Part shown: piece after piece, positions 14,751-38,481 of the stretch
Layout: each line of letters starts with the position of its first letter
Numbering within the stretch: position 1 is the stretch's first letter
Assembly: GCA_903888345.1 (NCBI GenBank)
Contig: CAISTG010000015.1
Coordinates: 11,474-75,473 of the forward strand
DNA from: Candidatus Buchananbacteria bacterium
Lineage (GTDB): Bacteria; Patescibacteriota; Patescibacteriia; 2-01-FULL-39-33
DNA: 64,000 bases
Direction: 5' to 3'
Made by a program: the position numbers and the translations under genes
Notes under the pieces: generated by a model
Databases searched by the model: none
Told to the model about the DNA's origin: nothing
Seen by the model: only the letters and a program-made list of their open reading frames with translations

Positions 14751-15446
14751 TCATGTCTTCAGTTTTAAGAAAATGTTCGATATTACCTGATCAATAACCA
14801 GTCTCCCAAAATCAATTCCCACTGGTTGGTGTCGAATTTGCTGGCTAACCCAAATTGAGTCGCCAGATCCGATTGCTTCAATATATGTCTTAGCGGCGGC
14901 ATAACTATCAATGCGCTTTTTGATCTCCGCCAGCGTTTGAGGGTCACCACTATCTAAAGCATTTTTGGTGCGGAGATTCTGTTGCAAATCAACAGCATCC
15001 GCCCACAACATCAACCGTAACTGCGGATAAATGCCAGCCGTCAATCGCTCACTTAATAGCCAAGACTGCGTTTGCATAATTACTTCCGGATCATCACGAT
15101 CAATGACGAAAGCCAGTGCCCTGATTTCTGATGAATCAAGCACTACCACTTGGCCCGCCATTAAAGCCGGCAGTACCACCGTTAGGTAATTCGCACGCAT
15201 AGCCCGTAAATAATACTTATTATGCGCCAAAGTACCCGGAACCAAGCCCTGGCTAGCAACTAACTCTTGGCCAATTTGATTGGCTGCCGGACTACTTTCA
15301 AAGTATGACGGCTTAATTATTAGGCCGCCACGATCAGGCCAGAGAGCATTAAGACGAGTACTCAAAAGACTAGTAATACTGCTTTTCCCGCTACCGTCAG
15401 GCCCATCAACACTAATTAAAATTCCGGGAAACTGCGTTTGACTCAT
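14751..15446 (-). CDS. P-loop nucleoside/nucleotide kinase, thymidylate-kinase-like (231 aa)
   Basis: ILISVDGPDGSGKSSITSLL Walker-A in Tmk/dNK-like context. Strong SD aggagg 5 nt upstream of the ATG. Confidence 0.6.
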   Translation of the reverse strand: MSQTQFPGILISVDGPDGSGKSSITSLLSTRLNALWPDRGGLIIKPSYFESSPAANQIGQELVASQGLVPGTLAHNKYYLRAMRANYLTVVLPALMAGQVVVLDSSEIRALAFVIDRDDPEVIMQTQSWLLSERLTAGIYPQLRLMLWADAVDLQQNLRTKNALDSGDPQTLAEIKKRIDSYAAAKTYIEAIGSGDSIWVSQQIRHQPVGIDFGRLVIDQVISNIFLKLKT

Positions 15447-15490
15447 TCTATTCCTCCTTTTTTGAGTTCAGCTAGAAGTAGTTGTCTGAC

Positions 15491-15518
15491 TTGAAAATTT
15501 AATGTAATGTGCTACAAT
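15491..15518 (+). promoter_or_regulatory. Sigma70-type promoter for the CYTH gene
   Basis: TTGAAA (15491-15496), 16-nt spacer, TGcTACAAT extended -10 (15510-15518). Confidence 0.45.
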
Positions 15519-15542
15519 TATTTATATTAATACAATAATTTT

Positions 15543-16079
15543 ATGGCTAAAAACAATCAGGAAATTGAAGTAAAGGCTACTTTCCAAGATCAACAGGCGG
15601 TATTAAATATCCTCCAGCCTCAATTAACCTTCGTCAATCGAGTTTCAATCAACGACACTTATTTTAGTTCAGGGGCCAGCATGAGCAACACTAATAATCT
15701 TGTCAGAATTCGAGAAATCAATAACGACAAAGTGGAGCTTACATTCAAAGGAAAAACAGTTGACACTAATAATATTTGGCAAAGAACGGAGATTACTACT
15801 TTAGTTGATTCCGCCACTAATGCCAAAGCTATCCTAGCGAATTTGGGGCTCAAAGTCGTATCCGAATATCAAAACGCGAAAGAATATTACGACTATAATG
15901 GACTGGAAATTGTCTTCGCTAGATTTACTTTGCCAGCTACATTAGAATTTATGGAAATTGAAGGCGACACGACTACCGCTGTGGCCGAAGTTATTGAAAA
16001 ATTAGGCCAAACAATTACCGTCGTCGGTGAAGAAATTTTTGACGTCTTTGATCGTGCCAGAAATAATACTGCTAACTAA
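15543..16079 (+). CDS. CYTH-domain protein (CyaB/ThTPase-like triphosphate tunnel metalloenzyme), 178 aa
   Basis: N-terminal EIEVKATF (the EXEXK CYTH signature). Downstream LVRIREINNDKVELTFKGK and WQRTEITTL basic/acidic tunnel residues. Its 3' end overlaps the convergent gene by 8 nt. Confidence 0.55.
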   Translation: MAKNNQEIEVKATFQDQQAVLNILQPQLTFVNRVSINDTYFSSGASMSNTNNLVRIREINNDKVELTFKGKTVDTNNIWQRTEITTLVDSATNAKAILANLGLKVVSEYQNAKEYYDYNGLEIVFARFTLPATLEFMEIEGDTTTAVAEVIEKLGQTITVVGEEIFDVFDRARNNTAN

Positions 16080-17262
16080 TTTTTAAGTATTTTTTTAGAG
16101 CCACTAAAGATAAGCCGAAAAACGTTTCTGGCTTATTTTTTATTTGCTCTGTTAGTTTAGCCACATCTATCCAGTGCGGATTGCGATTCTCTTCAATATT
16201 TTCTTTCGGCTCACCCTCTAAATAGCGGCTAACGAAAACTAAAGCAACATAGGAACGATCACCACTCAATTGTTGTAGACAAATATACGGCTGATAGGCT
16301 TCGATAATTTGGCCGTTAGATTCGGGTTGCGAGGCCAGAAATGACGGCATAATTTCACTTAGAACTGATGTTTCTTCGAGTGTTTCCCGTACAGCTGCAA
16401 TCTGAGCCGATTCAAATCGCTTAATTAAACCAGAAGGCAATTCAAATTTGCCGGAATTCGCCGGATCGATGTTTGGCTTATGCCGCGTTTGTAATAATAT
16501 TTCTGTTTGACCGTTATTATTTCTTTCAACGATATTTACCACCACTGGAATACCAATTGATAAATCATCATAATTAATATATTTATTGTGCAGCGGCGCA
16601 AAGTAATTGCTCTTTTCTAAAAAATTATATAATATCGGACAGCTGTGGCTAATTTCTTCTTTTAAGTTTATCAAATCAATCGGCAGATTAAGATCATTTT
16701 TTAAATTCAAATTATAAATAGAATGGCCTTGGCAATTCTTGCTTAAATCATTAAAAGAATTAGAAGTGCTCCAACGCACACCAGAAAAAATATTCGTGTT
16801 TCCCTGATCCTTAAGTCCCATTAAGTAGACACCGCCATTAACTTCGGGGCCAAAAACGTAATCATTATTATCTAACCTAGCAAACCCCGTAATTAAATCT
16901 TCTTGTTTAATAAAGGGAATATCCATGGGGATCAAGATGGCTTTACTATAGCCATGAACATTGGTCAAAGTCTTAAAAATTATATTTAACTTGTCGCTCA
17001 AGCTTGGCGCGGCGTCAATCGTGAAGCCATTAATTGAATAATTTTCCTGGAACCAACGCAAATCAGCCAAGCTATCGGTCGCGACTACTAAATCAAAGTA
17101 ATCGGAATTATTGATTTTATTTAATAAATCAATAAAACAACATTTTGCTAATTCAAACGCAAAATCCTCCGAAGTCTCTTCGGCGATCCTGGTTTTAACC
17201 TTTCCTTTAACTGGGCGCTTAGCAAAGACCACTACAACATTATCATGTTTTTTATTCAACAT
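16072..17262 (-). CDS. Fusion protein: N-terminal DUF2064 (GT-A/nucleotidyltransferase-like) and C-terminal Nudix hydrolase domain (396 aa)
   Basis: VVVFAKRPVKGKVKTRIAEE matches the DUF2064 N-terminus (ivvfaKaPvpGrVKTRL). C-terminal Nudix box GKFELPSGLIKRFESAQIAAVRETLEETSV (GX5EX7REUXEEXGU). Confidence 0.6.
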   Translation of the reverse strand: MLNKKHDNVVVVFAKRPVKGKVKTRIAEETSEDFAFELAKCCFIDLLNKINNSDYFDLVVATDSLADLRWFQENYSINGFTIDAAPSLSDKLNIIFKTLTNVHGYSKAILIPMDIPFIKQEDLITGFARLDNNDYVFGPEVNGGVYLMGLKDQGNTNIFSGVRWSTSNSFNDLSKNCQGHSIYNLNLKNDLNLPIDLINLKEEISHSCPILYNFLEKSNYFAPLHNKYINYDDLSIGIPVVVNIVERNNNGQTEILLQTRHKPNIDPANSGKFELPSGLIKRFESAQIAAVRETLEETSVLSEIMPSFLASQPESNGQIIEAYQPYICLQQLSGDRSYVALVFVSRYLEGEPKENIEENRNPHWIDVAKLTEQIKNKPETFFGLSLVALKKYLKIS

Positions 17263-17266
17263 AGAT

Positions 17267-18262
17267 TTACTGATTAGTATTCCAAATTTTCTTATCTTGG
17301 CCAGGACAACTCTTCAAAAATTCTCGGGATTTAATAATGGCAGTCAAAATCTGTTCTTGATCATGACTAACTAAATACTCCCTTAAAGGAATGATTTGAT
17401 TATCCATGTGGCAGGGCTTGATATTTAAATCAGAATTAATAAATATTTCATTCGAAAGATAACAATCTCGACAAACCTCCGGGTCGCCACAACCAATTTC
17501 AATTGCCACGCCCCAAGTATTTTTATAAGTGAGCTTATTTAATGGCAAATAGCCACACTGTCCCCTGAAGCTATCGTCTTGTTGTGCCATCCTGACGCAA
17601 CCCAAGGCAACTAAACGCTCCAGCAGCTCAGGCAAAGGTAAATTCCAGCCCAGTTGTTCCGCCGTAATCGGTTCAAAATTCAAAAATTTAAATTTAAAAC
17701 CATAATGATCGCATAGATTTAAAAACTCTAAAATATTCTCGGCGTCATCGTTTTTTCCTTTAACGACAACATATTTTAATTCGACTATTGGACGATTTGG
17801 TAGCTGTGATAGATATTCCAAATTGTTTAATAAATGATCGAATTGACCGCTTGTTCCACCGGTCATTTTCTGCCAAGTGGCATAATTAGAGCCATGGATC
17901 GAAACAGCGATTTTATGGCAAACTGATGCCAGTTTATCCATTATAGCGGGTGTCAAACTTACTCCGTTGGAATGGAAAAATAATTCTTTGAACGGTTTTA
18001 ATTTAATATATTCCAGCAAATCCATTATCTTGGGATAGAGGCTCGGCTCACCGCCGGTCAAAGATAGTTTCTTTAAACCGGACCGATGTAAGACGTCAAT
18101 CAAATATATGAGCTCAGAATATTCTGCATGCGCAATATTTTTCTGGCAGATTGGCATACCCTCGTTTGAACAAAAAAAGCACTTAAGATTGCAATAATCA
18201 GTTAGAGCAACACGTAAAGGAAAATTGCCAAGAATTTCCGATTGTTTTTGTTCCAGTGACAT
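17267..18262 (-). CDS. Radical SAM enzyme, MoaA-like paralog A (331 aa), with a C-terminal auxiliary-cluster Cys motif
   Basis: LTDYCNLKCFFCSNEG (CxxxCxxC), LSLTGGEPSLYP, KFLNFEP (cf. MoaA FIEFMP), C-terminal VCRDC-x16-C (MoaA-like C-x2-C-x13+-C). Confidence 0.75.
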   Translation of the reverse strand: MSLEQKQSEILGNFPLRVALTDYCNLKCFFCSNEGMPICQKNIAHAEYSELIYLIDVLHRSGLKKLSLTGGEPSLYPKIMDLLEYIKLKPFKELFFHSNGVSLTPAIMDKLASVCHKIAVSIHGSNYATWQKMTGGTSGQFDHLLNNLEYLSQLPNRPIVELKYVVVKGKNDDAENILEFLNLCDHYGFKFKFLNFEPITAEQLGWNLPLPELLERLVALGCVRMAQQDDSFRGQCGYLPLNKLTYKNTWGVAIEIGCGDPEVCRDCYLSNEIFINSDLNIKPCHMDNQIIPLREYLVSHDQEQILTAIIKSREFLKSCPGQDKKIWNTNQ

Positions 18263-18266
18263 ATGT

Positions 18267-19454
18267 TTAGCAGTATTTAAATTTTTCTTCTTTGTTCCAG
18301 CCCGCGCAATTCATGCCCGGAGCGAGCATTAAATATTCACGAGACAAACGGAAGAGGTCAAATAATTCTTCGTAGTTTTCGGTTTCGATAGCGTGAGTCA
18401 AATCAATTTTAGTATCAAGTACCGCACATGGTTTAATATATAGCCCCTGACCATCATTAGTCGGTTTGATAAACATACACAAGAAATTATAGCAAGACAA
18501 GCAGGCGGCCTTTTGACCGCAGCCAAAAATACTATGTAAGCCGCCAACATTTTTGTAAGTGAAATTCGTGCCCGGGATATAAGTATCGGGATCGTTATGT
18601 CGAGGCGCATCAGCTGGAAAAACACAACCCAGCTTTTCTAATTTTTCAAAAAACTCTTTACGGCCAACAGTATATTTTTTTTGCTCAGGAAATTGCGGTT
18701 CGAACTCCAAAAATTTTGGATGAAAACTATTAGCAGCACAATAATCTAGTAATCGCTGCAACTCTTCTTCACTATCATTGATGCCCCGCATAATAACACT
18801 CTTAATAAAAACTTTATCGCCGATCTGTTGTTTAGTTAAATATTCTAAATTTTCCTGAAGTTTTTTATATTTTCCCACTTGAATCTCTTCCTTAAAATAA
18901 TTATTTAAATTAGAAATTTTATTCCAAGTTGGAAAGAAAAAGGAATTTACCGAAACCCCGATGCGCGAAAATGAATCTTTGAGCCGATCAATAATAGTTG
19001 GGGTCAAAGCAATACCATTACTATGAATGGAAAAACGAATTTGCGGATACTTTTTTGTCCAGTCAATCAATTTAAAATCACCGCTAGTAAAGTCTGGATG
19101 AATTGTTGGCTCGCCACCACTAAAATCAATCATTTTTAGAGTTGTTGATTTAATCAACATATCACCTAATTTCATCACCAAATCGATATTGGCATGACCA
19201 TTAAACTTATCCGCATAACTAGATCCTTCATTAGAACAAAAAACACACCAAGAATTACACTTTGGTGTGAGAGAAATACGCAAACGTATTTTAGCAAACA
19301 AATCAAGCATTTCTTCCCGGCTAAGGTGTTTTTGACCCTTGGCCGCCAATGAATCTTTACTGAGATCTAATACCCTACCATTCTGATCTTTTCTGACGGT
19401 AACTTCCTCTTCCTTAAATTCCTTAGCCAAAGAGACGCTTGTTTGATCTGACAT
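18267..19454 (-). CDS. Radical SAM enzyme, MoaA-like paralog B (395 aa), with a C-terminal Cys-rich auxiliary motif
   Basis: LTPKCNSWCVFCSNEG (CxxxCxxC), FSGGEPTIHP, KFLEFEP, FGCGQKAACLSCYNFLC...IKPC. Clearly paralogous to 17267-18262 (HSNGIALTPTIIDRL vs HSNGVSLTPAIMDKL). Confidence 0.75.
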   Translation of the reverse strand: MSDQTSVSLAKEFKEEEVTVRKDQNGRVLDLSKDSLAAKGQKHLSREEMLDLFAKIRLRISLTPKCNSWCVFCSNEGSSYADKFNGHANIDLVMKLGDMLIKSTTLKMIDFSGGEPTIHPDFTSGDFKLIDWTKKYPQIRFSIHSNGIALTPTIIDRLKDSFSRIGVSVNSFFFPTWNKISNLNNYFKEEIQVGKYKKLQENLEYLTKQQIGDKVFIKSVIMRGINDSEEELQRLLDYCAANSFHPKFLEFEPQFPEQKKYTVGRKEFFEKLEKLGCVFPADAPRHNDPDTYIPGTNFTYKNVGGLHSIFGCGQKAACLSCYNFLCMFIKPTNDGQGLYIKPCAVLDTKIDLTHAIETENYEELFDLFRLSREYLMLAPGMNCAGWNKEEKFKYC

Positions 19455-19477
19455 ATTGTTTTTTAATAATTCTATTG

Positions 19478-19506
19478 ATTATACCCCTCATTTCAATATT
19501 TGTCAA
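19478..19506 (-). promoter_or_regulatory. Consensus sigma70 promoter driving the rSAM-B / rSAM-A / DUF2064-Nudix operon
   Basis: Minus strand reads TTGACA, 17 nt, TATAAT. -35 is plus tgtcaa 19501-19506; -10 is plus attata 19478-19483. About 25 nt upstream of ATG 19454. Confidence 0.6.
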
Positions 19507-19552
19507 TAGCGGCAGAATAAACATATTTTTATGGCCCAATAAATAGCTAATA

Positions 19553-21355
19553 TTAGCTTAAATATAAATGTTGACGACCCAAAACATAGAGACTGTTCAT
19601 GGCGCGAGTTAAGGCAATATAAAGTAAATCTTTCTTGATGTGGGACACCTCGGCATGCAATTCTACCGGTAAACCATTAACTGACAGTAATTCCCCGTCA
19701 ACTCCGACCAAAAACACGGCATCAAATTCCACGCCCTGGGAGTCAATCAGTGACATCACTTTAACATTACTATATTGGCTGAATTGTTGCTGATAAGTTT
19801 TTAATAATTCCTCATTATGCGACAAGATACCCACACTCACCTCTTTCAGCTCCATTAATTTTTCGGTTACATATTCCAATTCTTCTGCTGGCGTTAAAAT
19901 CAATTCTTCTACTCGAGGCCCCGACTTAATCATTTCCGGCACCACCACGTCAAAGCCCAATTCTTTGAGATAAGTTAAAATTTCTTTGGTATTACGATAG
20001 ACCTTGGATAGCTGAACCAGACGCTCGGCTGGCAACTCGCCGCCAATGCCCGATAAATTATTAACCGTGCCTAATCTGACGCGTTGATTAAAGTCACCAA
20101 TATAGACCATCTCACCTATTTTCGCGTTAACCGCTTGGCTAAAGATTGCTAAATGCTCTGGCAAATAATTCTGAAACTCGTCAATAATCATCAATTTGTA
20201 ATCCGCTTTAAACTTACCCTTTTTCCGCTTCAATTCTTTAGTCTTGCCGACCAGCGAATAATAATCTTTTTCAATCTGAAAACCATTATCAATGCCAGCA
20301 ATCGCGCGCAACAAAACTGCTAAGTCCAAACGATCGAGCTGTTTATTATTCTTTTGCACCATCAACCTGGCGTGTCCAGCTTGATCCAAATAGTCACCAT
20401 ACACTGCCTGAAGCAACTTAAACCAATCAGTTTGCCACTCTAATGACTGCTGCGCGCGTAAACCCTGCACTTTCGCCCAGACATAACTAGCTTCGGCATC
20501 AGTTTCATGTTCGGTAATCGTCCAATCAACTAACGGCAGAATATTTTTTGCCCAAGCCGCTAAAGTCGTAATTTCCACGTCCCTAATACCTAACTCTGGC
20601 AACAAATGCGAGAAATAATCTCTGGTACTTTCATCTTGCACGAAAACAATCACTTCGCCATCGCTTACTTGATCCGCAGTTTCTGGTGATTGCAAGAGAT
20701 AAGCAACTCGATGCAAGGCTAGAGTCGTTTTGCCAGAACCAGCTGGACCAGTAACCACTAGCTTACCGCCAAAGCTGGAGCGAATTACCTGGTCTTGCGC
20801 CTTTTCCATTTGCGCCACAATTTCTGGCAGCACAAAGGCAGTCTTACGTGAAGAAAAATATTCTTGATAAATTAATTCGCGCGCAGCAATCTGACTTTCG
20901 GTCGATAAAAATAAGATCTTACCATCATTAATTAAATACTGATCTTTTTTAATTATTTCTCCGCCCTGCTCTCCGCCATGACTGCGGACCATAAAGGCGC
21001 CTGGAACCTCAAACCTAATTTGAGAAATCGGTGACGCCCAAGAATAGATATTTTCTTGATCAAAAGCAAATTTCGAAAAATACAATTCACGAAAATCTTT
21101 TTCGCCGTCGAATTTAATTAAGCAAGAATTAAAATACGGCGATGGATGTAGATGCTGCAAATCATTATAACGCTTGCGATAAGTCGCGATCATGGTTTGA
21201 TAGCTCAGCTTGTCCGCATCGGACTCTTGCGATAAATGCTTCAACGTTAAAATCTCCTCCGGAATACGCTGGAGTTCAGAAACGATCACTTCCCGCTTGT
21301 GTTCCAGTGTCGCCTTAACTTGCTCTAAATACTGGTCTTTTTGGTCTGCTGTCAT
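19553..21355 (-). CDS. UvrD/HelD-like superfamily-1 DNA helicase (helicase IV-like), 600 aa
   Basis: VVTGPAGSGKTTLALHRVAYLL (Walker A with the HelD-style AxHR), IIDEFQNY (DEXQ), YIGDFNQRV, N-terminal coiled-coil-like domain. Confidence 0.7.
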   Translation of the reverse strand: MTADQKDQYLEQVKATLEHKREVIVSELQRIPEEILTLKHLSQESDADKLSYQTMIATYRKRYNDLQHLHPSPYFNSCLIKFDGEKDFRELYFSKFAFDQENIYSWASPISQIRFEVPGAFMVRSHGGEQGGEIIKKDQYLINDGKILFLSTESQIAARELIYQEYFSSRKTAFVLPEIVAQMEKAQDQVIRSSFGGKLVVTGPAGSGKTTLALHRVAYLLQSPETADQVSDGEVIVFVQDESTRDYFSHLLPELGIRDVEITTLAAWAKNILPLVDWTITEHETDAEASYVWAKVQGLRAQQSLEWQTDWFKLLQAVYGDYLDQAGHARLMVQKNNKQLDRLDLAVLLRAIAGIDNGFQIEKDYYSLVGKTKELKRKKGKFKADYKLMIIDEFQNYLPEHLAIFSQAVNAKIGEMVYIGDFNQRVRLGTVNNLSGIGGELPAERLVQLSKVYRNTKEILTYLKELGFDVVVPEMIKSGPRVEELILTPAEELEYVTEKLMELKEVSVGILSHNEELLKTYQQQFSQYSNVKVMSLIDSQGVEFDAVFLVGVDGELLSVNGLPVELHAEVSHIKKDLLYIALTRAMNSLYVLGRQHLYLS

Positions 21356-24531: not shown

Positions 24532-25149
24532 TTAAATACTCCAGTTTGCCATTAGCAAAGCGAAATCAATAATATCTACTTTTAAATCGCCATTCAAGTC
24601 AGCAGAATTAACGCCTGTCTTATCCCAGTTAGCCATCATCATGGCAAAGTCGATAATATCAACGACGCCACTTTTATCAATATCACCGACTTTAGATACT
24701 GCTAAGGGAGGAGTACTGCCTCCTCCTCCGCCGCCTCCGCCATTATTGGTCGTAGCGATATTTATGACGTAAACGAATGAAGCAACAGCAGACTGCTTAT
24801 TATTGGCATAGCAGGCCAATGCTTTAATGGTCAATGATTGACTCACGGGAATTGCTATCCCCGTCCGGTAAACTTGTGCGGATAAACATGTTGGCTCTGA
24901 ACCATCAAAAGTATAATGAATAGAATTAGCGCCGGTCGCAGCTAAGACTACGGATTGAACAGCTGTATAAGTGCCCACAACTGGACTAGCGGTCGGAGTA
25001 GTAACCACCACCCCGCTAATACCAGTATCGATGCCTGTGCTCAAGGTGCCGGTTACTTCAGAGCCGGTTGAGATCCGTGCTTGACTTTGACTAACAAAGC
25101 AGAATAATCCAACCGCCACTAAACAAGAAATTTTTGTTAGATTTTTCAT
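24532..25149 (-). CDS. Secreted dockerin-domain protein with an Fn3-associated/CHB_HEX_C-like domain and a Gly8 linker (205 aa)
   Basis: Two canonical dockerin Ca-binding repeats, DIDKSGVVDIIDFAMMMANW and DLNGDLKVDIIDFALLMANW. IHYTFDGSEPT motif of the chitobiase C-terminal-like domain. GGGGGGGG linker. Confidence 0.6.
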   Translation of the reverse strand: MKNLTKISCLVAVGLFCFVSQSQARISTGSEVTGTLSTGIDTGISGVVVTTPTASPVVGTYTAVQSVVLAATGANSIHYTFDGSEPTCLSAQVYRTGIAIPVSQSLTIKALACYANNKQSAVASFVYVINIATTNNGGGGGGGGSTPPLAVSKVGDIDKSGVVDIIDFAMMMANWDKTGVNSADLNGDLKVDIIDFALLMANWSI

Positions 25150-28100: not shown

Positions 28101-29957
28101 ATCATTGGAGATAACTGGTGAAGCATCAGCGATATCGGAAACAATTGGTGATCCTAAGCTGACAATGGTAAAAGGTCCAGTTGCTTCATTAGTAACATCA
28201 ATCGGTGCAGTGATGACTGGTTTAGTTGTATCAATTACGCTAACAACAAAAGTTGAAGTTTGAATATTTGAGGCACTATCACTGGCAGTGCAAGTCACGG
28301 TAGTATTGCCCAACGCAAAAGTTGAGCTAGAAACTGGCAAACAAGAAACTGAAACCGCACCGTCAATATTATCAGTTGCTAATGGAGTATCATAAGTGAC
28401 TGTGGCGCCAGCAAATGAAGTTGCCTCAATACCAGAAACATCAGCATGGGCAACGATTTCCGGTTTAGTAGTATCAATAAAATTAATGATAACGTCACCA
28501 TGGGCAGTCAAACCACTAAAACTCAAGGTGACACTCCCCTTGTTAATAAAGGTTAGGGTTCGAGTAACAAGTCCGCCGACAGTGTTGCCACTGCCGCCAA
28601 TAATCCCCCCTGCGGAAGCTAAAATGGCAACTGGAGTATTATCTTGAACTTGATTGCCAGCAGCATCAGTAACAGTGATAGTCAAAGTCACGGTTGTACC
28701 TGGGGTTAGACTAGCTTCTGGAGATACTGTACTAGCTGAGATCGTGCCATTTCGCGCCGCACCGGCGGTAAATGATACGGATTCTGTCTGATCAATTAAT
28801 ATTCCACCAATTGTTACGGAAACAATTTTATCTTCCGCCTTAGTAGATTGTAAACGAATGATAGCTTGTCCATTAACATCAGTAGTAACCGTTAATGGAT
28901 CATAGGAAGCGCCGGTACTAGGAGCTGCCGAGATACTAACTACTTGACCTGCGAGAACATTTCCGAAAGCATCCTTAGCGGTAATAGTATAAGTAGCTGT
29001 ACCTCCGTCAGTCGTAACAACGCCCGGATTATTGCGAGTCAAAGTAGATTGACTGGCACTAATTGGACCACGGTTGACAGTCACAGTAAAAGTGGTTGAA
29101 GTTGCATGATTGCCGGCGACATCAGTAGCATTACAAGTAACAGTTGTGTTTCCGATGGCAAAAACAGACCCAGAAGCTGGCAAACAGACTGCTGTTCCAG
29201 TCGCATCAACATTATCAGTTACAGCAGGAGCAGTATAAATAACATGGCCAGAACCCAAAGCATCAGCGGTTGCAGTGACGGTTGAGTGAGGAGCGATTAC
29301 TGGAGCCACCGTATCAACAGTATAAGTAACAATGACTTGAATATAATCGACTGACGCTGTTCTATTTCTAGCTGGGGTTGCGTTGGTATTTATGGCAGAT
29401 AAATCAACGCCAAAATTGGCGCTATTTATATCAGCTGGAGTCCATGAAGTGCCCCAAAGATCAGATACTGACCCGTAAGTTGCAGCACCTTCAGTAGTTG
29501 GCCAATTTGTTCCAGTTACAGCCTTATTATCCCCAGTAATTACTCCACCCTTAACTAAACTAACTACATGATCACGGATTAATGGGTCAGAGGTACCACT
29601 AGTATAACGACCAACCACGACTTGGATTCCATTAATTGTCGCATTAGTCGGAATTGCAAAACCATAAGAACGCCCTGCCACATAATTGCTAGTGGCAGTT
29701 CCACCGCCAGGCAAATCAACGGTGGCATAAACATTATTATTGGAAACAATATTAGCAGGAACTGTCCACGCATATGTTCCAATTCCAGCGACGTTTGTAC
29801 CAGAACCAGCGAAATTTGGACCACTGGTCGCAGCTGAAGCTGTATTAATAAAAAAGCCGCAGACAAAAAGCATTGTCGCGACTACTGCAATTTTTCCTCC
29901 ATTTTTAAAAACCTTATTTCTTGAAAAAGAAATAATTGACTCGAATAATTGTTGCAT
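25152..29957 (-). CDS. Giant secreted adhesin/S-layer-like protein (1601 aa) with multiple HYR (hyalin-repeat) domains and SbsA_Ig/Big_5-like domains
   Basis: Repeated units of the type VAPVIA.H..V.A......A.V.Y..P.A.D..D.......C.P.SGS.F..G.T.VTC.A.D..GN.A (HYR). TAPYVVTMSPANGATNV...(Big_5-like). Signal-like N-terminus. Confidence 0.75.
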   Translation of the reverse strand: MQQLFESIISFSRNKVFKNGGKIAVVATMLFVCGFFINTASAATSGPNFAGSGTNVAGIGTYAWTVPANIVSNNNVYATVDLPGGGTATSNYVAGRSYGFAIPTNATINGIQVVVGRYTSGTSDPLIRDHVVSLVKGGVITGDNKAVTGTNWPTTEGAATYGSVSDLWGTSWTPADINSANFGVDLSAINTNATPARNRTASVDYIQVIVTYTVDTVAPVIAPHSTVTATADALGSGHVIYTAPAVTDNVDATGTAVCLPASGSVFAIGNTTVTCNATDVAGNHATSTTFTVTVNRGPISASQSTLTRNNPGVVTTDGGTATYTITAKDAFGNVLAGQVVSISAAPSTGASYDPLTVTTDVNGQAIIRLQSTKAEDKIVSVTIGGILIDQTESVSFTAGAARNGTISASTVSPEASLTPGTTVTLTITVTDAAGNQVQDNTPVAILASAGGIIGGSGNTVGGLVTRTLTFINKGSVTLSFSGLTAHGDVIINFIDTTKPEIVAHADVSGIEATSFAGATVTYDTPLATDNIDGAVSVSCLPVSSSTFALGNTTVTCTASDSASNIQTSTFVVSVIDTTKPVITAPIDVTNEATGPFTIVSLGSPIVSDIADASPVISNDAPAAGFAPGETTVTWTATDGSGNFATATQIVTILDTTSPVIDVHADITGVEASIDPTLGAGVGFTAPMSHDLVDGDLISSCLPASGSTFYLGTTTVTCSKTDAHGNVATSTTFNVVVVDTTKPAFSATAPATDAFIKADYTVSYTLSEALASGSISVNGPVSAVYTLSGSELTIGAHTISQASLTAAGISLAEGVYAVTFDGTDMSGNAGTLTSTGITYDVTPATVVNVTSDKADGDYKAGENIVVSVEFSEPVNVGTYYRPWGCGYWGDHCWDTIDQRPYLILETGATDRTADYSTGTGSTIVSFSYTVQSGDNSLDLDTIAGDALNLDGQSIRDFAGNDSNLTLPVPSETNSLSFNKNIKIDAVAPVIASHAEVVAEATSITGAIVDYVSPEAVDVFDGTTTVACLPVSGSQFALGDTTVTCTSADALGNTATSNFNVHVHDTTAPAITAPADVTGFVANGVLSTVSIGSPITSDVVDAAPVITNDAPVAGFPVGTTVVTWTSTDFSGNFATATQNIIVVPAPISKVTVVATSPVDTNTASIVTVTGRDQWDHPTTNQSGTIVLVSADNGAALGDTILTLVNGVAETTLRKTTAGNVNITVSSGNLLPGTAVATFTQADVTAPYVVTMSPANGATNVAISAPIFFNFSEALNTDTVNADNIKLMMVGVDSTDTQVAGKVLAEGNQKVYFIPDANLDYSVAYYFIISGVSDKVGNVMIANIGSTNSGFTTTENTADLVAPIVAGQSPLADATGVALNARPYVDFSEAMKATTLTAANIELRKASDNSVVPASISVENGGTRAVINPLANLDLETSYYIYVSSNVADEAGNLMGASYTAGSFTTIADDTVLAVTGISTVKSFATADGSWANGWAWQFDVTAPTAETGLRMRFADFVSGANLIPAASNIRFYSAQSNDVNSGESAIVISEANTYSGSMNLTGDLDTTKLGRQIRIIVEVRVPEGTVGGSYSTSYGIQTVPNEE

Positions 29958-32914: not shown

Positions 32915-33097
32915 ATATTTGTCATTATGACTAAGCCGCGGTAAGCAAGGATGCTTGAAAACCGCCATTAAATATATTATAACACTGGAATCTAAATCTG
33001 CCTAATGCTAGTTAGGTCATTGACAAAGTTACCATTTATCTTTACACTACAACTTAACCATTGTACCTTTAACCGCCACCAACCCAGGAGACGTCAA

Positions 33098-33829
33098 ATG
33101 AATAAACTGTCGTGGATTTTAGCCGTAATTTTCGGATTAATTATTGTTGTTCGGTGCCAGACGGTTATCGCCGCTGAAGACCCGCTTAAAGAGATTAATG
33201 CCAGCGGCTTCCCACTTACTACGGGTTTTCATTGGGAATACAATTACGTCAGTGAAGACCAAGATCCTAATGGCAAGTCATTGGCTGACCCCTATGGCAG
33301 TCAGGATGGACCCAAGGTCAAGGTAAATCGGGTCGAGCAGACGATGACCATGCAAGTTGGCGAGATTTTGATCGAAAATGGCAATATCAGGGCTGATGTC
33401 ACTGGTAATAGTTTACTAATCTTTGCCAATCCGGAAAGTGTCCGCGACTACAGTTGGGTTTATCAACCCTCAACTGGCGGTTTCTGGGAAGGGACGACTT
33501 CATTACGTAACGATTTCGTTGATAATCGACTCGGTTTAACTGCTGGCCGACCATTACTGCTGTTGCCGCCAAAAATCGGCCGACACTGGGGAGAAATATC
33601 GGAAGTTAAGCGTAACGATACGATGTATCGCTGGGAAGTTGAGACTAAAGAAGTTGTCAAAGTTCCCGCCGGTAACTTTATGTGCTATCGCCTAGCCTAT
33701 CGCACTAACCCCGATCACCAGATCATTTGGTTTTGCCCCAAGGTCGGCATTGTTAAAATGCAATATGTGCATCACGGCACAATCATGAATACGTTTATTG
33801 AACTTACCGCTTATGGTCAAAAAAAATAA
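33098..33829 (+). CDS. Secreted hypothetical protein (243 aa)
   Basis: SD aggag 7 nt upstream of ATG 33098. Signal peptide MNKLSWILAVIFGLIIVVRCQTVIA. The track ORF starts upstream at 33005 without an RBS. Confidence 0.5.
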   Translation: MNKLSWILAVIFGLIIVVRCQTVIAAEDPLKEINASGFPLTTGFHWEYNYVSEDQDPNGKSLADPYGSQDGPKVKVNRVEQTMTMQVGEILIENGNIRADVTGNSLLIFANPESVRDYSWVYQPSTGGFWEGTTSLRNDFVDNRLGLTAGRPLLLLPPKIGRHWGEISEVKRNDTMYRWEVETKEVVKVPAGNFMCYRLAYRTNPDHQIIWFCPKVGIVKMQYVHHGTIMNTFIELTAYGQKK

Positions 33830-33888
33830 GCACAACAAAACCCGTCAGATAACTTCTGGCGGGTATTTTAATATTATCACTGCCAGCT

Positions 33889-34641
33889 TTATTTAGTCGC
33901 AAAATTAAAAAAACCACCGCTACCCCCATAATTACATTGATTGCATAATGGCGAAACTGTCCGATCTAAATTATCAATCGACTGGCGAAAAGACTCAAAA
34001 GCGACATTTGTCCAAATATCTTCCAACCGATTATCTTTAACATTACCAAAACAATTAATCTCATAAAAATCACAACAACAACTGACAATCTTGCCACTGG
34101 GCCGCACACATAATACATTATGAATTCGATCGCAACCAGCCTGAAGTGCCTGTTGGGGTTTTGCTGCCCCCTCATGGCTAATATTACCGCCTCGATTATC
34201 TAGAAGAAACGGTTGCCGCTGATCAATGATCTCAATCAGATAATCTCGTGATTTTTTAAAATTACTAATCTTAGCAAAAGTCGCATCGTCATAAGTCGAA
34301 ACCTTAAGTTCACTTAAGCCAGCAGCAAACAGCCGATCCAACTTATCAAGATCTAACAAATCGCCATTACTGGCAATCATATGCCAAGCGTCAGGATTTT
34401 TTTGTTTGGAATAATTAATAAACTCGAAAATCCGTGGATCCGTTAGGGGCTCGTTAGTTTCAAAATAACCAATACGTCCCTTAAAGCCTAAGTCGGCTAG
34501 ATTATCAACAATTTTTTTAAATAATTCTGCACTTAATTCAATATTTTCCGGTTGATCACAATGACCATAATAACAATAAGAGCATCGACGTGTGCACCGA
34601 TTATTGGTTTGTATTTTGATGTGTTGAAATAATTTTGTCAC
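33889..34641 (-). CDS. Radical SAM enzyme with a C-terminal Cys-rich SPASM/twitch-like region (250 aa)
   Basis: NNRCTRRCSYCYY (CxxxCxxC). C-terminal ...CDRIHNVLCVRPSGKIVSCCCDFYEINCFGN...PLCNQCNYGG. Confidence 0.7.
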   Translation of the reverse strand: MTKLFQHIKIQTNNRCTRRCSYCYYGHCDQPENIELSAELFKKIVDNLADLGFKGRIGYFETNEPLTDPRIFEFINYSKQKNPDAWHMIASNGDLLDLDKLDRLFAAGLSELKVSTYDDATFAKISNFKKSRDYLIEIIDQRQPFLLDNRGGNISHEGAAKPQQALQAGCDRIHNVLCVRPSGKIVSCCCDFYEINCFGNVKDNRLEDIWTNVAFESFRQSIDNLDRTVSPLCNQCNYGGSGGFFNFATK

Positions 34642-34644
34642 AAA

Positions 34645-35055
34645 TTACTGCCAAATTTTATTAAGCTCGTCCCTTTTAATAAAGGGGTCGACTTCCTCAC
34701 TGGCAAATAAGTCAGCTTTAGAAAACCAAGCTGATGCGCTATGCTCTTCAGAAATTACAACTACTTCCGAACCAGTCAAAACTTCATTAATAGTAAAAAC
34801 AATACCCAACAAATCTTTGCCAGTATGATTGCTCTGCCAAATCCAAACGGGATCGCCCACCGTTAATCGTAGCCCAGTTTCTTCTTCTAATTCCCTTTTT
34901 AAGCCAGCCTTAACTTCTTCACCCTGATGAATGGTTCCACCAGGCAAAGTATAGAGTCCGCCCGGTCGATTTCTTTTTAATAATAAAACCTGATTAGCAT
35001 TATTAACAATAATAGCCTGAGTTGTAACTCTAGCATTGAGCTTTTCCATAAACAT
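34645..35055 (-). CDS. Nudix hydrolase (136 aa)
   Basis: Nudix box GGTIHQGEEVKAGLKRELEEETGL. Alternative start at MEKLN (35049). Confidence 0.75.
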   Translation of the reverse strand: MFMEKLNARVTTQAIIVNNANQVLLLKRNRPGGLYTLPGGTIHQGEEVKAGLKRELEEETGLRLTVGDPVWIWQSNHTGKDLLGIVFTINEVLTGSEVVVISEEHSASAWFSKADLFASEEVDPFIKRDELNKIWQ

Positions 35056-35185
35056 TTGATAATTAATTTTATACTATCTATTATGTCACATTATTACATT
35101 ATTAGCACACTCGCCCAAAAATTACAAGGATTAGATCAATTAAAAAAGCGCTTGTTTAGACAAAACAAGCGCCAAACTAACAAAC

Positions 35186-35770
35186 TTACCAAACCTCATA
35201 CTTAATTACTGCCCAAGGCGTCAGCAACAAGATCCAAAAGTACAACCAGGGGCTCTGATGCTCCACATAGTACAGGTCACGTTCGAGTCGACGTTCTGGC
35301 TCAATGTGGCTTTTCCGAAAACCATAGACTTGGGCTAGTCCTGACATGCCCGGCAACACTTGCAGTCGCTTTTTGTATTGCGGCAGCTGACTAGCATACT
35401 GCTCAACCAAGTGGGGTAACTCTGGTCGCGGTCCGACTAAACTCATGTCGCCTTTGATGACATTAACCAATTGTGGTAATTCATCGAGACTATAGCGACG
35501 GAGCAAGTGCGAAAACCTTGAGATCCGAGGATCGTGTTTGGTAATCGGACCAAGTTTACGCATCGCTAAATTTTCCGGCGTTGGCTTCATTGTCGTAATC
35601 TTATACATACCAAACTGCCGGCCGTCCTTACCAATCCGGTTGTCCTTAAATATTGCATGGCAACGCAGATGGCACTTGGTCACGACGATAATCGTTACCA
35701 GAACCGGCGAAACCAGCACTAATATAAACAGCGCTAACACCAAATCGACTAACCTATTTACAACCTTCAT
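35186..35770 (-). CDS. Polyprenyl-phosphate glycosyl-1-phosphate transferase (bacterial sugar transferase family, minimal PglC/WbaP-like), 194 aa
   Basis: N-terminal TM helix. DELPQLVNVIKGDMSLVGPRPE and PGMSGLAQVYG motifs. Overlaps the upstream gene by 4 nt. Confidence 0.8.
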   Translation of the reverse strand: MKVVNRLVDLVLALFILVLVSPVLVTIIVVTKCHLRCHAIFKDNRIGKDGRQFGMYKITTMKPTPENLAMRKLGPITKHDPRISRFSHLLRRYSLDELPQLVNVIKGDMSLVGPRPELPHLVEQYASQLPQYKKRLQVLPGMSGLAQVYGFRKSHIEPERRLERDLYYVEHQSPWLYFWILLLTPWAVIKYEVW

Positions 35771-36708
35771 AACTCACCCTCCATAATGGCTTTGATTTTC
35801 GCCGTAACCCAATCGAGGTTACCGAAAATTTCGAAAGTCTGACTTTGTTTGTAAATATCCCTGGCCAAAGCCAATACTCGCGTACTGACTTCCTTTTGGT
35901 TGAGTGGCTGATAGACACTTTTAGTTGTCACCAGCACCAACTGCAAAGGATCATAAAAAAACGATAGTGGTTGATATAGAGCAACTTCGGAGAAGCTACT
36001 TTCCACATCCACTAGTCGGCGACAAGTACAATATTCATCGTTCACCGGAACGACCTTAACTCGCACTACTAAATCGATTGGCGTCGCCTCAGTCTTCTTC
36101 TGACAAAGGTCCGCCGCCACCGCAATAAATCTGTCTTTCCCGAACGTCTTCAACAAATACAGATACTCGGGAAAATATAACCGAATGGTTTCCGGTCGCA
36201 GTCGAATCGGCTTAGTACCGCCAAACATGGTCGGTCGGCCCTGTAATCTGCCGATCAATAAGCGATCATTACCCAGATACCGATAACCGTCTTTAAGCAA
36301 CTTCAGGCTGGTAATGGACTTGCCAGAAGCGAATCCACCAACCAACATTAAGCCACGTCCTTCCGGTGACCGCAGTCCAACTGCATAAGCCAAAACATTA
36401 TCGACAGACAAGTAAAGGTGCGAAAAATGATAGACCAGTAAAATTTCTAAATCATTCCTCCAGAGCGCACTTTCGTTAAAATAGAAGAAAGTCTGCCGAG
36501 CCAGAGGATCAATATAGAGAGACGTTTCGGGCGCCACCATGACCGTAAATTCCCAATCATAGTCACGAGAAATCGCCTTGTAACAATAATAACTCGGAAT
36601 AGCCCGATCCGCGACATCCTGATAATAGGCCAGGACTGCCGGCGAGTTGGTTTTCAGCAGAATTTTGAAATCCAGCGAACTTAATGTGCAGGAAAGAATC
36701 TCTGGCAT
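35767..36708 (-). CDS. HprK-related kinase-like protein (HPr-kinase C-terminal-domain fold), 313 aa
   Basis: GLMLVGGFASGKSITSLKLLKDGYRYLGNDRLLIG parallels the HprK P-loop GvLitGdSGvGKSetALeLi..G..LvaDDrv. No N-terminal HprK domain. Confidence 0.5.
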   Translation of the reverse strand: MPEILSCTLSSLDFKILLKTNSPAVLAYYQDVADRAIPSYYCYKAISRDYDWEFTVMVAPETSLYIDPLARQTFFYFNESALWRNDLEILLVYHFSHLYLSVDNVLAYAVGLRSPEGRGLMLVGGFASGKSITSLKLLKDGYRYLGNDRLLIGRLQGRPTMFGGTKPIRLRPETIRLYFPEYLYLLKTFGKDRFIAVAADLCQKKTEATPIDLVVRVKVVPVNDEYCTCRRLVDVESSFSEVALYQPLSFFYDPLQLVLVTTKSVYQPLNQKEVSTRVLALARDIYKQSQTFEIFGNLDWVTAKIKAIMEGEL

Positions 36709-36709
36709 C

Positions 36710-37270
36710 TTAAGTCCTCCTTATTCGGATTTGTGTCCGAGCAAATTCATACGCCTCATCACCATTCCCGACAATAACTAAACGCGGACCTAACAATTCT
36801 TTCAGAAACTCCCGTGTCTGATCAAGTGACTCCTGAAATAAAACCAGATCAGTCACATCCGGAGTATCACCGCGTTTGACCATGTTTTTCAGACAATCGT
36901 CAAATGGTGTTGCGATCAGTACCACAAAAGTCGGCCACCAACTCCTGGTCAGTGGCAGCAACTCAGCGGCGGTAATTAGTCGCTTCCGGAAACACAGATT
37001 AGAAAAATCACAGAATGACGAACGCTCCATTAGCAATAAATCGGTACAAGCCGACAATTGCCGCAAGATTCGTTGTCGATAACTCACCCACTCCAGAATA
37101 CTAGTCTCATCCCTAGTTGCTCGTTTCAGACTATAAGGAAAACCAGTACCAAACCAGAGGGTTTCAGTTTGCGGCGAAACTTCGGCCGCTAACCGTTTAA
37201 TAACAGTGGTTTTACCCGCTCCCATTAAACCCTCGAAGTCAATTGACAAGGCTTGTTTGAGTCTAATCAT
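36710..37270 (-). CDS. P-loop nucleoside/nucleotide kinase-like protein (186 aa)
   Basis: DFEGLMGAGKTTVIKRLAAE Walker-A in dNK/Tmk-like context. Confidence 0.5.
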   Translation of the reverse strand: MIRLKQALSIDFEGLMGAGKTTVIKRLAAEVSPQTETLWFGTGFPYSLKRATRDETSILEWVSYRQRILRQLSACTDLLLMERSSFCDFSNLCFRKRLITAAELLPLTRSWWPTFVVLIATPFDDCLKNMVKRGDTPDVTDLVLFQESLDQTREFLKELLGPRLVIVGNGDEAYEFARTQIRIRRT

Positions 37271-37276
37271 GATGAC

Positions 37277-38263
37277 TTACCTCCAAATCCATGATTCACC
37301 GGTCTGCTGATAACGTAACTGCTGGGCGTGATAATGACTCGGCCAGAAACAACCAGAGCAATGCTCTGTATCCTTAGCTCGAGCTTCCAAAACTTTAGAA
37401 AAGTTGCTTGAGTCCTCCAAAGAAAAGATTGAGTACTGACTCAAGTGCTCTCCTTTGATGTCATTGCAACTCATTAATACGCCATCGGCATCGATCCTTA
37501 ACTCACTAATTACTGGAGCGCAATGCCAATTAAGGTTAATGGCGTAGTCCGGCAAGATAGTCAAGTATTCAACCGTATTAGATAACAACGCACCATCACG
37601 CTTCGCAGCAATCATCTTACCGACAAACTCTTGCAGTCGACCCTTATCCGACTCAGTAAAAGCAGGTGGTAAATTTCGGCCACGCGTTTGCCAATGATCG
37701 CCCGGACTAGCATGATAAGGCAGAATATACAGAGAAATTCCTTGTGCCGTTAACTGTTTCAAAATCAACTCAATCTGCTCCATGTTCTCGGGACGCAAAA
37801 CTGAATATGCAGTTAATTGCGGCACGCCAAGTTGCTGCATCAAAGCTAAAACTTCGTGAGCACGCAGACTCTTAGCGGTACTACAACTATCAAAACCATT
37901 TGGTCCGAGAACATCCATACTAGTGGAAAATCGTTGCAATCCTGCTCGCGCCAAACCGGCATAAATCTCCAGATCCGACATCGAGTTGGAAACAATGGCT
38001 AAATCCAATCCAGTCACCTCACGGTTAAACTGAACTAATTCAACAATGCCCGGATAGGTTGTTGGTTCTCCACCTAAAATAGAAACCTTATTAATACCTA
38101 AAGATTGCAAAATCAAAAAAGCTTTTTGCCAATCTTTCAGTGTTAATTCGTGGTAGTTCAACGCCAGCTTTCGGGTGCTGCAATGCTCACAAGAGAGATT
38201 ACAGCGTCGAGTAATGTAGATGCCGCAGGTCGTGATCGGATAGACGTTAGTGTCGATGTTCAT
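37277..38263 (-). CDS. Radical SAM enzyme with a C-terminal SPASM/MoaA-like auxiliary Cys region (329 aa)
   Basis: ITRRCNLSCEHCS (CxxxCxxC), SILGGEPTTYPG, WHCAPVISELRIDADGVLMSCND, CSGCFW. SD aaggag 7 nt upstream of ATG 38263. The track's upstream M at 38308 lacks an RBS. Confidence 0.75.
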   Translation of the reverse strand: MNIDTNVYPITTCGIYITRRCNLSCEHCSTRKLALNYHELTLKDWQKAFLILQSLGINKVSILGGEPTTYPGIVELVQFNREVTGLDLAIVSNSMSDLEIYAGLARAGLQRFSTSMDVLGPNGFDSCSTAKSLRAHEVLALMQQLGVPQLTAYSVLRPENMEQIELILKQLTAQGISLYILPYHASPGDHWQTRGRNLPPAFTESDKGRLQEFVGKMIAAKRDGALLSNTVEYLTILPDYAINLNWHCAPVISELRIDADGVLMSCNDIKGEHLSQYSIFSLEDSSNFSKVLEARAKDTEHCSGCFWPSHYHAQQLRYQQTGESWIWR

Positions 38264-38330
38264 ATAACATCTCCTTTTGTTGTGTTTTAAGTTGTCAATG
38301 TCCAGCAATAGACATCAAGATAACTCTTAA

Positions 38331-38359
38331 CTATAGTCGATAGTCTGATCTTTGTCAAG
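38331..38359 (-). promoter_or_regulatory. Consensus sigma70 promoter for the 6-gene rSAM/kinase/sugar-transferase/Nudix operon
   Basis: Minus strand reads TTGACA, 17 nt, TATAGT (plus tgtcaa 38354-38359, plus actata 38331-38336). Confidence 0.55.
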
Positions 38360-38481
38360 CCTTTTCTACTAATGCAAGGGAATTAGTGATTACGCCGAGA
38401 TTATTAAGAATAATACACTCAAGCTGATTCTATTTTGTTAATTCTCTATGTGCTATAATAAACACAAATAACCAAACTTAT

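Follow-up and report, generated by a model that had tools for sequence, protein, structure and literature searches.

The stretch of Candidatus Buchananbacteria DNA analysed here (64,000 nucleotides, hereafter the window) contains two groups of genes that seem to repeat one enzymatic recipe. Locus 1 (14751-19506) and locus 2 (33889-38358) each combine two radical S-adenosylmethionine (SAM) enzymes carrying extra Cys clusters with a Nudix domain, a P-loop kinase and a transferase. Does this repetition reflect common descent, chance, or two independent assemblies of the same parts? The initial annotation had proposed a family of related small-molecule or glycoconjugate pathways rather than a coincidence. 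We consider it probable that the two loci are independent of each other, that each is a conserved cassette in its own right, and that they converge on the same toolkit and both handle nucleotide-activated substrates. Their shared logic is a convergent theme, neither coincidence nor common descent, and the same broad toolkit would be present in both loci because both act on nucleotide-activated substrates.

Calling of open reading frames (ORFs) and scans with Pfam and NCBIfam confirmed the domain content of both loci. Locus 1 comprises two radical SAM proteins, here called rSAM_B and rSAM_A, a fusion of DUF2064 and Nudix domains, a CYTH protein and a Tmk-like kinase. Locus 2 comprises a Twitch-type radical SAM protein, a deoxynucleoside kinase (dNK)-like protein, an HprK-like protein, a Bac_transf transferase, a stand-alone Nudix protein and a BtrN-like radical SAM protein. 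Auxiliary-cluster Cys motifs are present in all four radical SAM proteins, and the transferases are those named in the initial annotation, DUF2064 in locus 1 (Pfam, 3.6e-14) and Bac_transf in locus 2 (183.8 bits). Two conserved members had been overlooked, the CYTH protein (15543-16079, plus strand) and the HprK-like protein (35767-36708, minus strand). The Nudix domain announced for locus 1 is genuine, but it is not encoded by a separate gene, being part of one 396-aa protein with DUF2064. All four proteins with an N-terminal CX3CX2C motif and both Nudix boxes of the window (56 non-nested ORFs) fall inside the two loci. When gene order was permuted, about 4e-4 of the random orders yielded the observed clustering, that is two disjoint 6-gene windows each with at least two radical SAM proteins, a Nudix and a Walker-A protein. 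The two-locus pattern is real and non-random. On this point the earlier proposal holds; its second half, a related pathway family, is not supported, the components belonging to different subfamilies.

As had been noted before, the two loci are not sequence duplicates, and BLAST across them returns only the generic radical SAM core and the Nudix box. Similarity between the radical SAM proteins of locus 1 and locus 2 is confined to the N-terminal core, and a profile-profile comparison (hhalign) of the rSAM_A family (27 sequences) with the radical SAM family of locus 2 (9 sequences) matched the N-terminal ~100 columns only. Their C-terminal motifs differ, with a MoaA-like C258-x5-C264-x2-C267-x16-C284 in rSAM_A versus the Twitch/SPASM signature C-x12-G-x4-C...C-x2-C in locus 2. 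The kinase families of the two loci match each other with an hhalign probability of 8%. Their Nudix domains have the Nudix box alone in common (E 0.004), and the fused Nudix of locus 1 constitutes its own family. The transferases are not functional analogues either. Bac_transf is a polyprenyl-phosphate phosphoglycosyl transferase that consumes a nucleoside diphosphate (NDP)-sugar, whereas DUF2064, with its CofC/MobA-like GT-A fold, would form a nucleoside monophosphate (NMP)-phosphate linkage.

Genomic contexts were compared as well. A scan of GTDB species genomes gave 28 locus-1-type loci, of which the 26 with rSAM_A were used for neighbour counts, both by mapping the window proteins and by clustering all ORFs. 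No locus-2 homologue (E <= 1e-4), other than a generic stand-alone Nudix in a few cases, was found in these 26 loci and their flanks of up to 9 kb, and no locus-1 gene was found in any locus-2-type locus examined. Family sizes are also dissimilar, at least 121 protein clusters for locus 1 and about 3-9 for the families of locus 2. As judged from sequence, the two loci are unrelated below the superfamily level. The family-level kinship on which the idea of related pathways depended is largely refuted, since the radical SAM, kinase and Nudix families differ.

Locus 1 begins with a promoter-like site (19478-19506, minus strand; TTGACA-17-TATAAT, 12/12 matches to the sigma-70 consensus) located 24 nt upstream of the rSAM_B start, which separates the locus from an upstream helicase gene. 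The first gene, rSAM_B (18267-19454, minus strand), encodes a 395-aa MoaA/viperin-like radical SAM protein with a C-terminal Cys motif (Pfam Radical_SAM 4.7e-17). It reaches 69.2 bits with the MoaA model TIGR02666 (cut-off 284) and, in a partial alignment, 48.5 bits with the viperin model NF038283 (cut-off 180). It is a paralogue of rSAM_A (33% identity, E 5e-52), the core gene of the cassette (17267-18262, minus strand), which encodes a MoaA-like radical SAM protein of 331 aa (Radical_SAM 1.2e-21). Residues C24/C28/C31 and C258/C264/C267/C284 are invariant in the rSAM_A family, as is the Arg aligned to MoaA R17. The best PDB sequence match of rSAM_A is MoaA (8e-18). Its AlphaFold2 (AF2) model, with a predicted local distance difference test score (pLDDT) of 89, has MoaA structures as top Foldseek matches (2fb2 and 1tv7, template modelling (TM) score 0.68 over 331 columns), followed by viperin and viperin-like structures.

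The next gene encodes the DUF2064-Nudix fusion (16072-17262, minus strand, 396 aa). Its DUF2064 domain scores 53.1 bits with PF09837 (gathering threshold 25.8) and 94.2 bits, versus a cut-off of 134, with TIGR04282, a model named 'arsenosugar biosynthesis glycosyltransferase'. It matches PDB entry 3cgx (4.8e-9) and, weakly, CofC. On these scores the transferase of locus 1 is a DUF2064 member that probably does not belong to the ArsS-linked subfamily. The fused Nudix domain (8.4e-12; PF00293 45.7 bits versus 21.1) has an intact GX5EX7REX2EE box at residue 278. Convergent with the fusion gene is the gene for the putative CYTH/triphosphate-tunnel enzyme (178 aa, Pfam CYTH 1.9e-14), whose scores exceed the cut-offs both for CYTH (PF01928, 54.3 bits versus 23.2) and for class IV adenylate cyclase (TIGR00318, 61.6 bits versus 57.95). 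The sequence EIEVK at its N-terminus (residues 7-11) corresponds to the ExExK motif. The Tmk-like P-loop kinase (14751-15446, minus strand, 231 aa) possesses a Walker A motif. It reaches 17-20.5 bits with the Tmk and Cmk models of Pfam (cut-offs 26-27) and matches TIGR00041 over nearly its full length (E 2.5e-5).

A small ORF of 86 aa (14332-14592, minus strand) lies downstream of the kinase gene and its membership in the cassette is uncertain. It matches no Pfam or NCBIfam family, and it is kept in an 81%-identical relative (L045) but was not found in other locus-1-type loci. L045 retains the whole block from the helicase through rSAM_B, rSAM_A, the fusion, CYTH, the kinase and the 86-aa ORF to a gene for a short-chain dehydrogenase/reductase (SDR). 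The region between the two loci of the window (21.6-33.8 kb) is not common to L045. A stretch of ~600 bp (13723-14331), which carries a 179-aa ORF without family match (13767-14306, minus strand), is also absent from L045, so that the two sequences differ by an indel located after the 86-aa ORF and before the SDR gene. The HelD/UvrD-like helicase (19553-21355, minus strand; NCBIfam HelD_BACSU 122.8 bits, below cut-off) was considered as a member of locus 1 and rejected: none of the other 26 loci carries it, and locus 1 is preceded by a promoter-like site of its own. It has an orthologue at L031:12976-14808 and is split in two in L045.

How widespread is this cassette? Homologues of rSAM_A form at least 121 protein clusters with 40-83% identity, from sources that include Patescibacteria, Omnitrophica, Pacearchaeota, Nanoarchaeota and Promethearchaeota. 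The 28 loci come from Saccharibacteria, Falkowbacteria and other metagenome-assembled genomes (MAGs) of Patescibacteria, from MAGs labelled Gammaproteobacteria, from DPANN archaea (Pace-, Woese- and Nanoarchaeota) and from one Methanosarcinales MAG. DUF2064 directly follows rSAM_A in 24 of the 26 loci, the other two being truncated contigs. CYTH and a P-loop kinase each accompany rSAM_A in 20 of them, the kinase being of the window type in 7 (bacterial) and of another family, F3, in 13 (DPANN-type). rSAM_B is found in 14 loci, and the fusion of Nudix to DUF2064, seen in 12, is always accompanied by rSAM_B. Locus 1 has the lowest GC content of the window (0.366-0.368 versus ~0.41). The flanks differ from locus to locus, with 116 Pfam families in 144 flanking ORFs, and are mostly housekeeping genes or genes of no known function. 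They include type I restriction-modification genes (three matches each for the methylase and specificity models) and, twice, AbiEii genes. We found no relative of locus 1 among the viral contigs of IMG/VR. Locus 1 is a genuine, widespread, conserved and horizontally mobile cassette of bacteria of the Candidate Phyla Radiation (CPR) and of DPANN archaea.

Several accessory genes recur in these loci. A Gre-factor-like protein, F4, is encoded in 12 of the 28, four of them archaeal, and 11 of these 12 carry rSAM_A. Its 160-190 aa span the full Gre architecture, and the tip motif D-x-W-H-D-[EN] is conserved (e.g. L003:6475-7044, L016:12395-12874 and L014:5759-6259). In DPANN archaea, bacterial Gre factors are not expected. 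The window itself has no copy of F4. Another protein, F5, of ~310 aa and with an AbrB/MazE-type N-terminal domain, is encoded divergently from rSAM_A in 11 DPANN-type loci (e.g. L009:1799-2752) and is a candidate regulator of the cassette. Histidine phosphatases and a metallophosphoesterase are further recurrent accessory genes. A protein of ~252 aa without Pfam match is encoded after the Gre-like gene in two bacterial loci (L004:12426-13181 and L010:12281-13042).

What could locus 1 make? MoaA and viperins both act on nucleoside triphosphates (NTPs). With these proteins as the closest sequences and folds, and with partners that are all nucleotide or phosphate enzymes, we infer that locus 1 most likely modifies an NTP. 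The invariant Arg at the position of MoaA R17 and the phosphatase accessory genes of the variants also count for such a substrate. In the proposed route, rSAM_A, with rSAM_B as an add-on, would abstract a hydrogen from the NTP by radical chemistry, and the Tmk-like kinase would supply or re-phosphorylate the nucleotide. The CofC/MobA-like DUF2064 domain could then couple an NMP to a phosphate-bearing partner, while the fused Nudix domain and CYTH might trim or recycle species with two or three phosphates. Such a route would end in a modified nucleotide or an NDP-linked metabolite. Of the original small-molecule or glycoconjugate reading, the glycoconjugate is reasonable for locus 2 only. The scores of rSAM_A itself weigh against the NTP assignment, being 106.5 bits with TIGR02666 and 48.4 bits with NF038283, below the respective cut-offs of 284 and 180 and with only partial alignment to viperin. 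After its C-terminal CxxC, rSAM_A reads Y-L-S-N-E. At this place MoaA would have its guanine-binding motif N-R-x-R, and because of this difference the base specificity of rSAM_A may not be that of MoaA.

According to the strongest competing explanation, locus 1 and perhaps also locus 2 would work as an anti-phage or conflict system in the manner of prokaryotic viperins (pVips). The radical SAM enzyme would make a chain-terminating or toxic NTP analogue, with the triphosphate coming from the kinase; Nudix and CYTH would keep self-poisoning in check, and the host RNA polymerase would depend on the Gre-like factor for its rescue. Both the system and this scheme seem to us rather unlikely, even if several observations fit. 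The hidden Markov models (HMMs) for pVips match all four radical SAM proteins weakly (rSAM_A 7e-18, rSAM_B 1.5e-14, the Twitch-type protein of locus 2 2.7e-11, the BtrN-like protein 4.2e-8), and viperin folds are the second-best structural match. As in the kinase-linked pVips named in PADLOC, a radical SAM protein of the MoaA/viperin group stands beside a gene resembling NMP kinases, and the distribution is patchy, crosses domains and involves unrelated flanks. The low GC content, the Gre-like gene in 12 loci including archaeal ones, and the restriction-modification and AbiEii genes among the flanks point in the same direction, as do the Bro-N, DUF7718 and DUF5647 genes that adjoin one locus-2-type variant (L036). 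However, the viperin scores are far under cut-off (48 bits versus 180), and no PADLOC system matches the cassette, the matches being weak and to single proteins (63 and 52 bits for rSAM_A and rSAM_B with the pVip models, over part of the model only). The radical SAM proteins of locus 1 also differ from pVips by their auxiliary Cys cluster, which viperins are not known to have, and by the presence of three to four further enzymes. Such a fixed operon of 4-6 enzymes with a nucleotidyltransferase looks more biosynthetic, and its flanking genes are mostly housekeeping genes. Absence from viral contigs was also counted on this side, though it is neutral for a role in defence. A more specific variant can be imagined, in which the product is a radical-SAM-modified nucleotide acting on transcription or on RNA 5' ends, chain-terminating or cap-like, the Gre-like, Nudix and CYTH proteins serve self-protection or turnover, and the whole is a new conflict or regulatory system exchanged between CPR and DPANN. 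We regard it as a speculative idea and an unlikely one.

Another explanation is a pterin-, cofactor- or dinucleotide-type metabolite made by a route like that of the molybdenum cofactor, in which GTP would first be cyclised in the manner of MoaA and the product then nucleotidylated as by MobA or CofC. The resemblance is not trivial. MoaA is the best sequence and fold match of locus 1 (106 and 69 bits for rSAM_A and rSAM_B), and both proteins have the N-terminal CX3CX2C and the C-terminal CxxC...C. A protein with a CofC/MobA-like GT-A fold follows, its DUF2064 domain weakly matching CofC, and all belong to a conserved multi-enzyme operon. The differences make this route improbable. Both radical SAM proteins stay under the 284-bit cut-off, the Mob_synth_C domain (PF06463) was not found in either of them in the Pfam scan, and MoaC-, MoaD- and MoaE-like genes are not among the recurrent families of the cassette. 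Locus 1 has instead two paralogous radical SAM copies, with CYTH, Nudix and a Tmk-like kinase as partners. The Y-L-S-N-E sequence in place of the N-R-x-R of MoaA would be a further difference, and the Gre-like and phosphatase accessory genes would be left unexplained. An NTP-modifying pathway is the reading of locus 1 that we prefer.

We found no description of DUF2064 or of the locus-1 gene combination in full-text literature searches, and neither a cultured model nor a published account of the cassette turned up. The main gain of this study is the recognition of locus 1 as a module that is conserved and mobile among the tiny genomes of CPR and DPANN and that apparently has not been described before. 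Given the minimal metabolism and host dependence of these organisms, a radical SAM pathway of 4-6 dedicated genes for an NTP-type substrate likely matters for their interactions, for defence or for a missing cofactor. If its product were identified, the MoaA/viperin branch of radical SAM enzymes would gain a new reaction and DUF2064 a function.

Locus 2 also starts with a promoter-like site (38330-38358, minus strand, 11/12 consensus). It precedes the gene for the Twitch-type radical SAM protein (37277-38308, minus strand; Pfam Radical_SAM), which has 343 aa as annotated. Its true start is most likely the ATG at 38263, giving 328 aa, because homologues start there. In the 328-aa numbering, C21/C25/C28 and C248-x12-G-x4-C266...C302-x2-C305 are invariant. 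In the PDB the protein is closest in sequence to SkfB and MoaA, with alignments limited to its N-terminal half, and it reaches 63.4 bits with TIGR02666 (cut-off 284). The dNK-like P-loop kinase follows (36710-37270, minus strand, 186 aa), with a Walker A motif. It scores 18-24 bits with dNK and Tmk models (Pfam cut-off 27), over the P-loop only, and matches the PADLOC model VakA over its full length (1.4e-6). A search of the literature for VakA found only generic viperin papers.

The third gene encodes the HprK-like P-loop protein (313 aa). It scores 37.7 bits with TIGR04355 (HprK-related kinase B, cut-off 200) over the central ~100 residues only, and aligns with the HprK structure 1jb1 over the Walker A/NDR region (E 0.016). 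Among 60 wider relatives, 53 match TIGR04355, 43 match TIGR04352 and 18 match ScmC. The Walker A/NDR match and these relatives support its assignment to the HprK superfamily. Its AF2 model, built from 3 sequences, is unusable (pLDDT 47). The fourth gene encodes the predicted PglC-type phosphoglycosyl transferase (35186-35770, minus strand, 194 aa), which matches Bac_transf (PF02397) over residues 6-190 with a score far above the cut-off of 27 bits and TIGR03025 with 223 bits, aligned to the C-terminal domain. An N-terminal hydrophobic helix and the LDELPQ (Asp-Glu) and GPRP (PRP) motifs can be recognized in its sequence. A terminator-like hairpin (35147-35173, minus strand; 11-bp stem followed by a T run) stands between the transferase and Nudix genes and is kept in four loci (the window, L031, L033 and L036) with differing stem sequences, which suggests that locus 2 consists of two transcription units. 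The stand-alone Nudix protein (34645-35055, minus strand, 136 aa; 62.4 bits versus 21.1) has an intact box and is kept in all locus-2-type loci. The last gene encodes the BtrN-like Twitch radical SAM protein (33889-34641, minus strand, 250 aa; Radical_SAM and SPASM in Pfam). It aligns with BtrN (PDB 4m7s, E 1.5e-25) from end to end, residues 1-237 versus 1-236, with 29% identity over 234 aa and 7/7 cluster Cys aligned.

Relatives of locus 2 are few. The HprK-like protein forms three 90%-clusters in a collection of 5.8 billion proteins, and in a set of 1.8 billion proteins six representatives match it at E < 1e-30; the family of the Twitch-type radical SAM protein has ~9 members. The full order of radical SAM, kinase, HprK-like, Bac_transf, Nudix and BtrN-like genes recurs in L031/L038, and its part from the HprK-like to the BtrN-like gene is found in the same order on a 2.6-kb contig (L033). 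L036/L037 have no BtrN-like gene; the Bro-N, DUF7718 and DUF5647 genes are found instead (L036:4704-6266), and a mobile or phage-related neighbourhood is hinted for this variant. In L034, a transposase of the IS1595 family (L034:12067-12732) replaces the kinase and Bac_transf genes, and a second copy lies 7 kb downstream. More distant relatives of the radical SAM protein (32-41% identity) stand in unrelated and uninformative contexts, such as AMP-binding plus SDR genes, an aminoacyl-tRNA synthetase-like gene or a B12-dependent radical SAM gene. Locus 2 is a genuine, rare and lineage-restricted cassette with few close relatives.

BtrN is a radical SAM sugar/cyclitol dehydrogenase. On account of this homology, of the strong PglC-type transferase and of the Nudix protein, we suppose that locus 2 is directed at a sugar. 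The BtrN-like dehydrogenase and the Twitch-type radical SAM protein would remodel a sugar or cyclitol, the two P-loop kinases and the Nudix protein would manage its phosphate or nucleotide handle, and the PglC-type transferase would load the sugar-phosphate onto polyprenyl phosphate. That a sugar or cyclitol, probably nucleotide-activated, is radically remodelled and then moved as a sugar-phosphate to polyprenyl phosphate is a tentative proposal in which our confidence is limited. Known systems offer partial parallels. BtrN is the 2-deoxy-scyllo-inosamine dehydrogenase of butirosin biosynthesis, and the 250-aa protein keeps its seven cluster Cys, but locus 2 is not an aminoglycoside cluster, having neither an aminotransferase nor a 2-deoxy-scyllo-inosose synthase. 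Like PglC/WbaP, the 194-aa protein is a full-length small Bac_transf with Asp-Glu and PRP motifs, but it lies outside a glycan-assembly cluster, with radical SAM proteins, kinases and Nudix as neighbours. Two points weigh against a sugar pathway: locus 2 has no nucleotidyltransferase, glycosyltransferase or flippase, and the HprK-like protein has relatives in presumed peptide-modifying cassettes.

The second of these points raises the question whether locus 2 might instead modify a peptide, either a ribosomally synthesized and post-translationally modified peptide (RiPP) or a protein. Two radical SAM/SPASM-type maturases and an HprK-like kinase would then act together, as proposed for SynChlorMet (ScmC/ScmE/ScmF) and for the HprK-related kinase A/B cassettes. 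The wider relatives of the HprK-like protein fall in the TIGR04355, TIGR04352 and ScmC families, which accompany paired radical SAM/SPASM enzymes, and in locus 2 this protein is likewise flanked by two radical SAM proteins with auxiliary clusters. Pfam calls a SPASM domain, and in the PDB the sequence closest to the 343-aa radical SAM protein is that of the peptide maturase SkfB. We nevertheless find it hard to believe. No conserved small or precursor ORF is present in the intergenic regions of locus 2, and no PqqD or RiPP recognition element domain appears in the Pfam/NCBIfam scans. The short radical SAM protein is a full-length BtrN homologue, and the HprK-like protein is far under every family cut-off (37.7 bits versus 200). 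RiPP cassettes do not use a PglC-type transferase, a Nudix or a dNK-like kinase, which are partners of a sugar or nucleotide type. The remodelling of a sugar thus stays our preferred, if tentative, reading, and locus 2 would show a BtrN-like enzyme that is coupled to a phosphoglycosyl transferase and has no part in aminoglycoside biosynthesis.

A further Bac_transf gene had been reported outside the two loci, at 45011-45658. This orphan paralogue is real (E 2.2e-25) and has 25% identity to the copy of locus 2. It matches only positions 2-144 of the 179 of the model, and a DUF7919-containing ORF (45627-46268, plus strand) overlaps its 3' end.

Could the two cassettes nevertheless share a past? 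Some observations tell against their complete independence. They lie on the same strand, 14 kb apart. The locus-2 kinase is aligned by hhalign with F3, the kinase of the DPANN-type cassettes of locus 1, over 79 columns (87%, E 4e-6), a likeness that may reflect a shared dNK-type P-loop/ERS region and perhaps no more. Genes with a GreA-C domain stand beside locus-1-type cassettes (12 loci) and beside one locus-2-type cassette, L034, where a 77-aa ORF with this domain sits before the radical SAM gene. In L031/L038, the locus-2-type cassette is immediately followed by an orthologue (45% identity) of the helicase that stands beside locus 1 of the window, and because of this position the helicase and the two cassettes may be former neighbours in this lineage. 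These links are a weak connection and do not make the cassettes homologous. That the loci are diverged members of one pathway family, by common descent or exchange of modules, and make related small molecules or glycoconjugates, as the initial annotation had it, is very improbable: identical superfamily content, non-random clustering, the F3 kinase, the GreA-C genes and the common helicase neighbour speak for it, but the radical SAM proteins, window-type kinases and Nudix domains show no kinship at subfamily level, the folds of the transferases are unrelated and their roles opposite, each cassette has a private core gene (CYTH in locus 1, HprK-like in locus 2), and no other locus examined has the two cassettes next to each other.

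Some other features of the window deserve mention. A tRNA-Thr(UGU) gene (44456-44763, minus strand) has its anticodon loop split by a group I intron of 234 nt (96 bits with Rfam RF00028); the tRNA is missed by ARAGORN in its standard mode and found in the intron-aware mode. Two giant ORFs encode proteins of 2168 aa (6099-12605, minus strand) and 1601 aa (25152-29957, minus strand). Beside the latter, a small protein (24532-25149, minus strand) has CHB_HEX_C, Fn3-associated and dockerin domains. Finally, the genes at 40870-43796 (plus strand) encode an FMN_bind protein, an ApbE flavin transferase and an NQR2/RnfD-like protein fused to FAD/NAD-binding domains, and this cluster is possibly an extracytoplasmic flavinylation or electron-transfer module.

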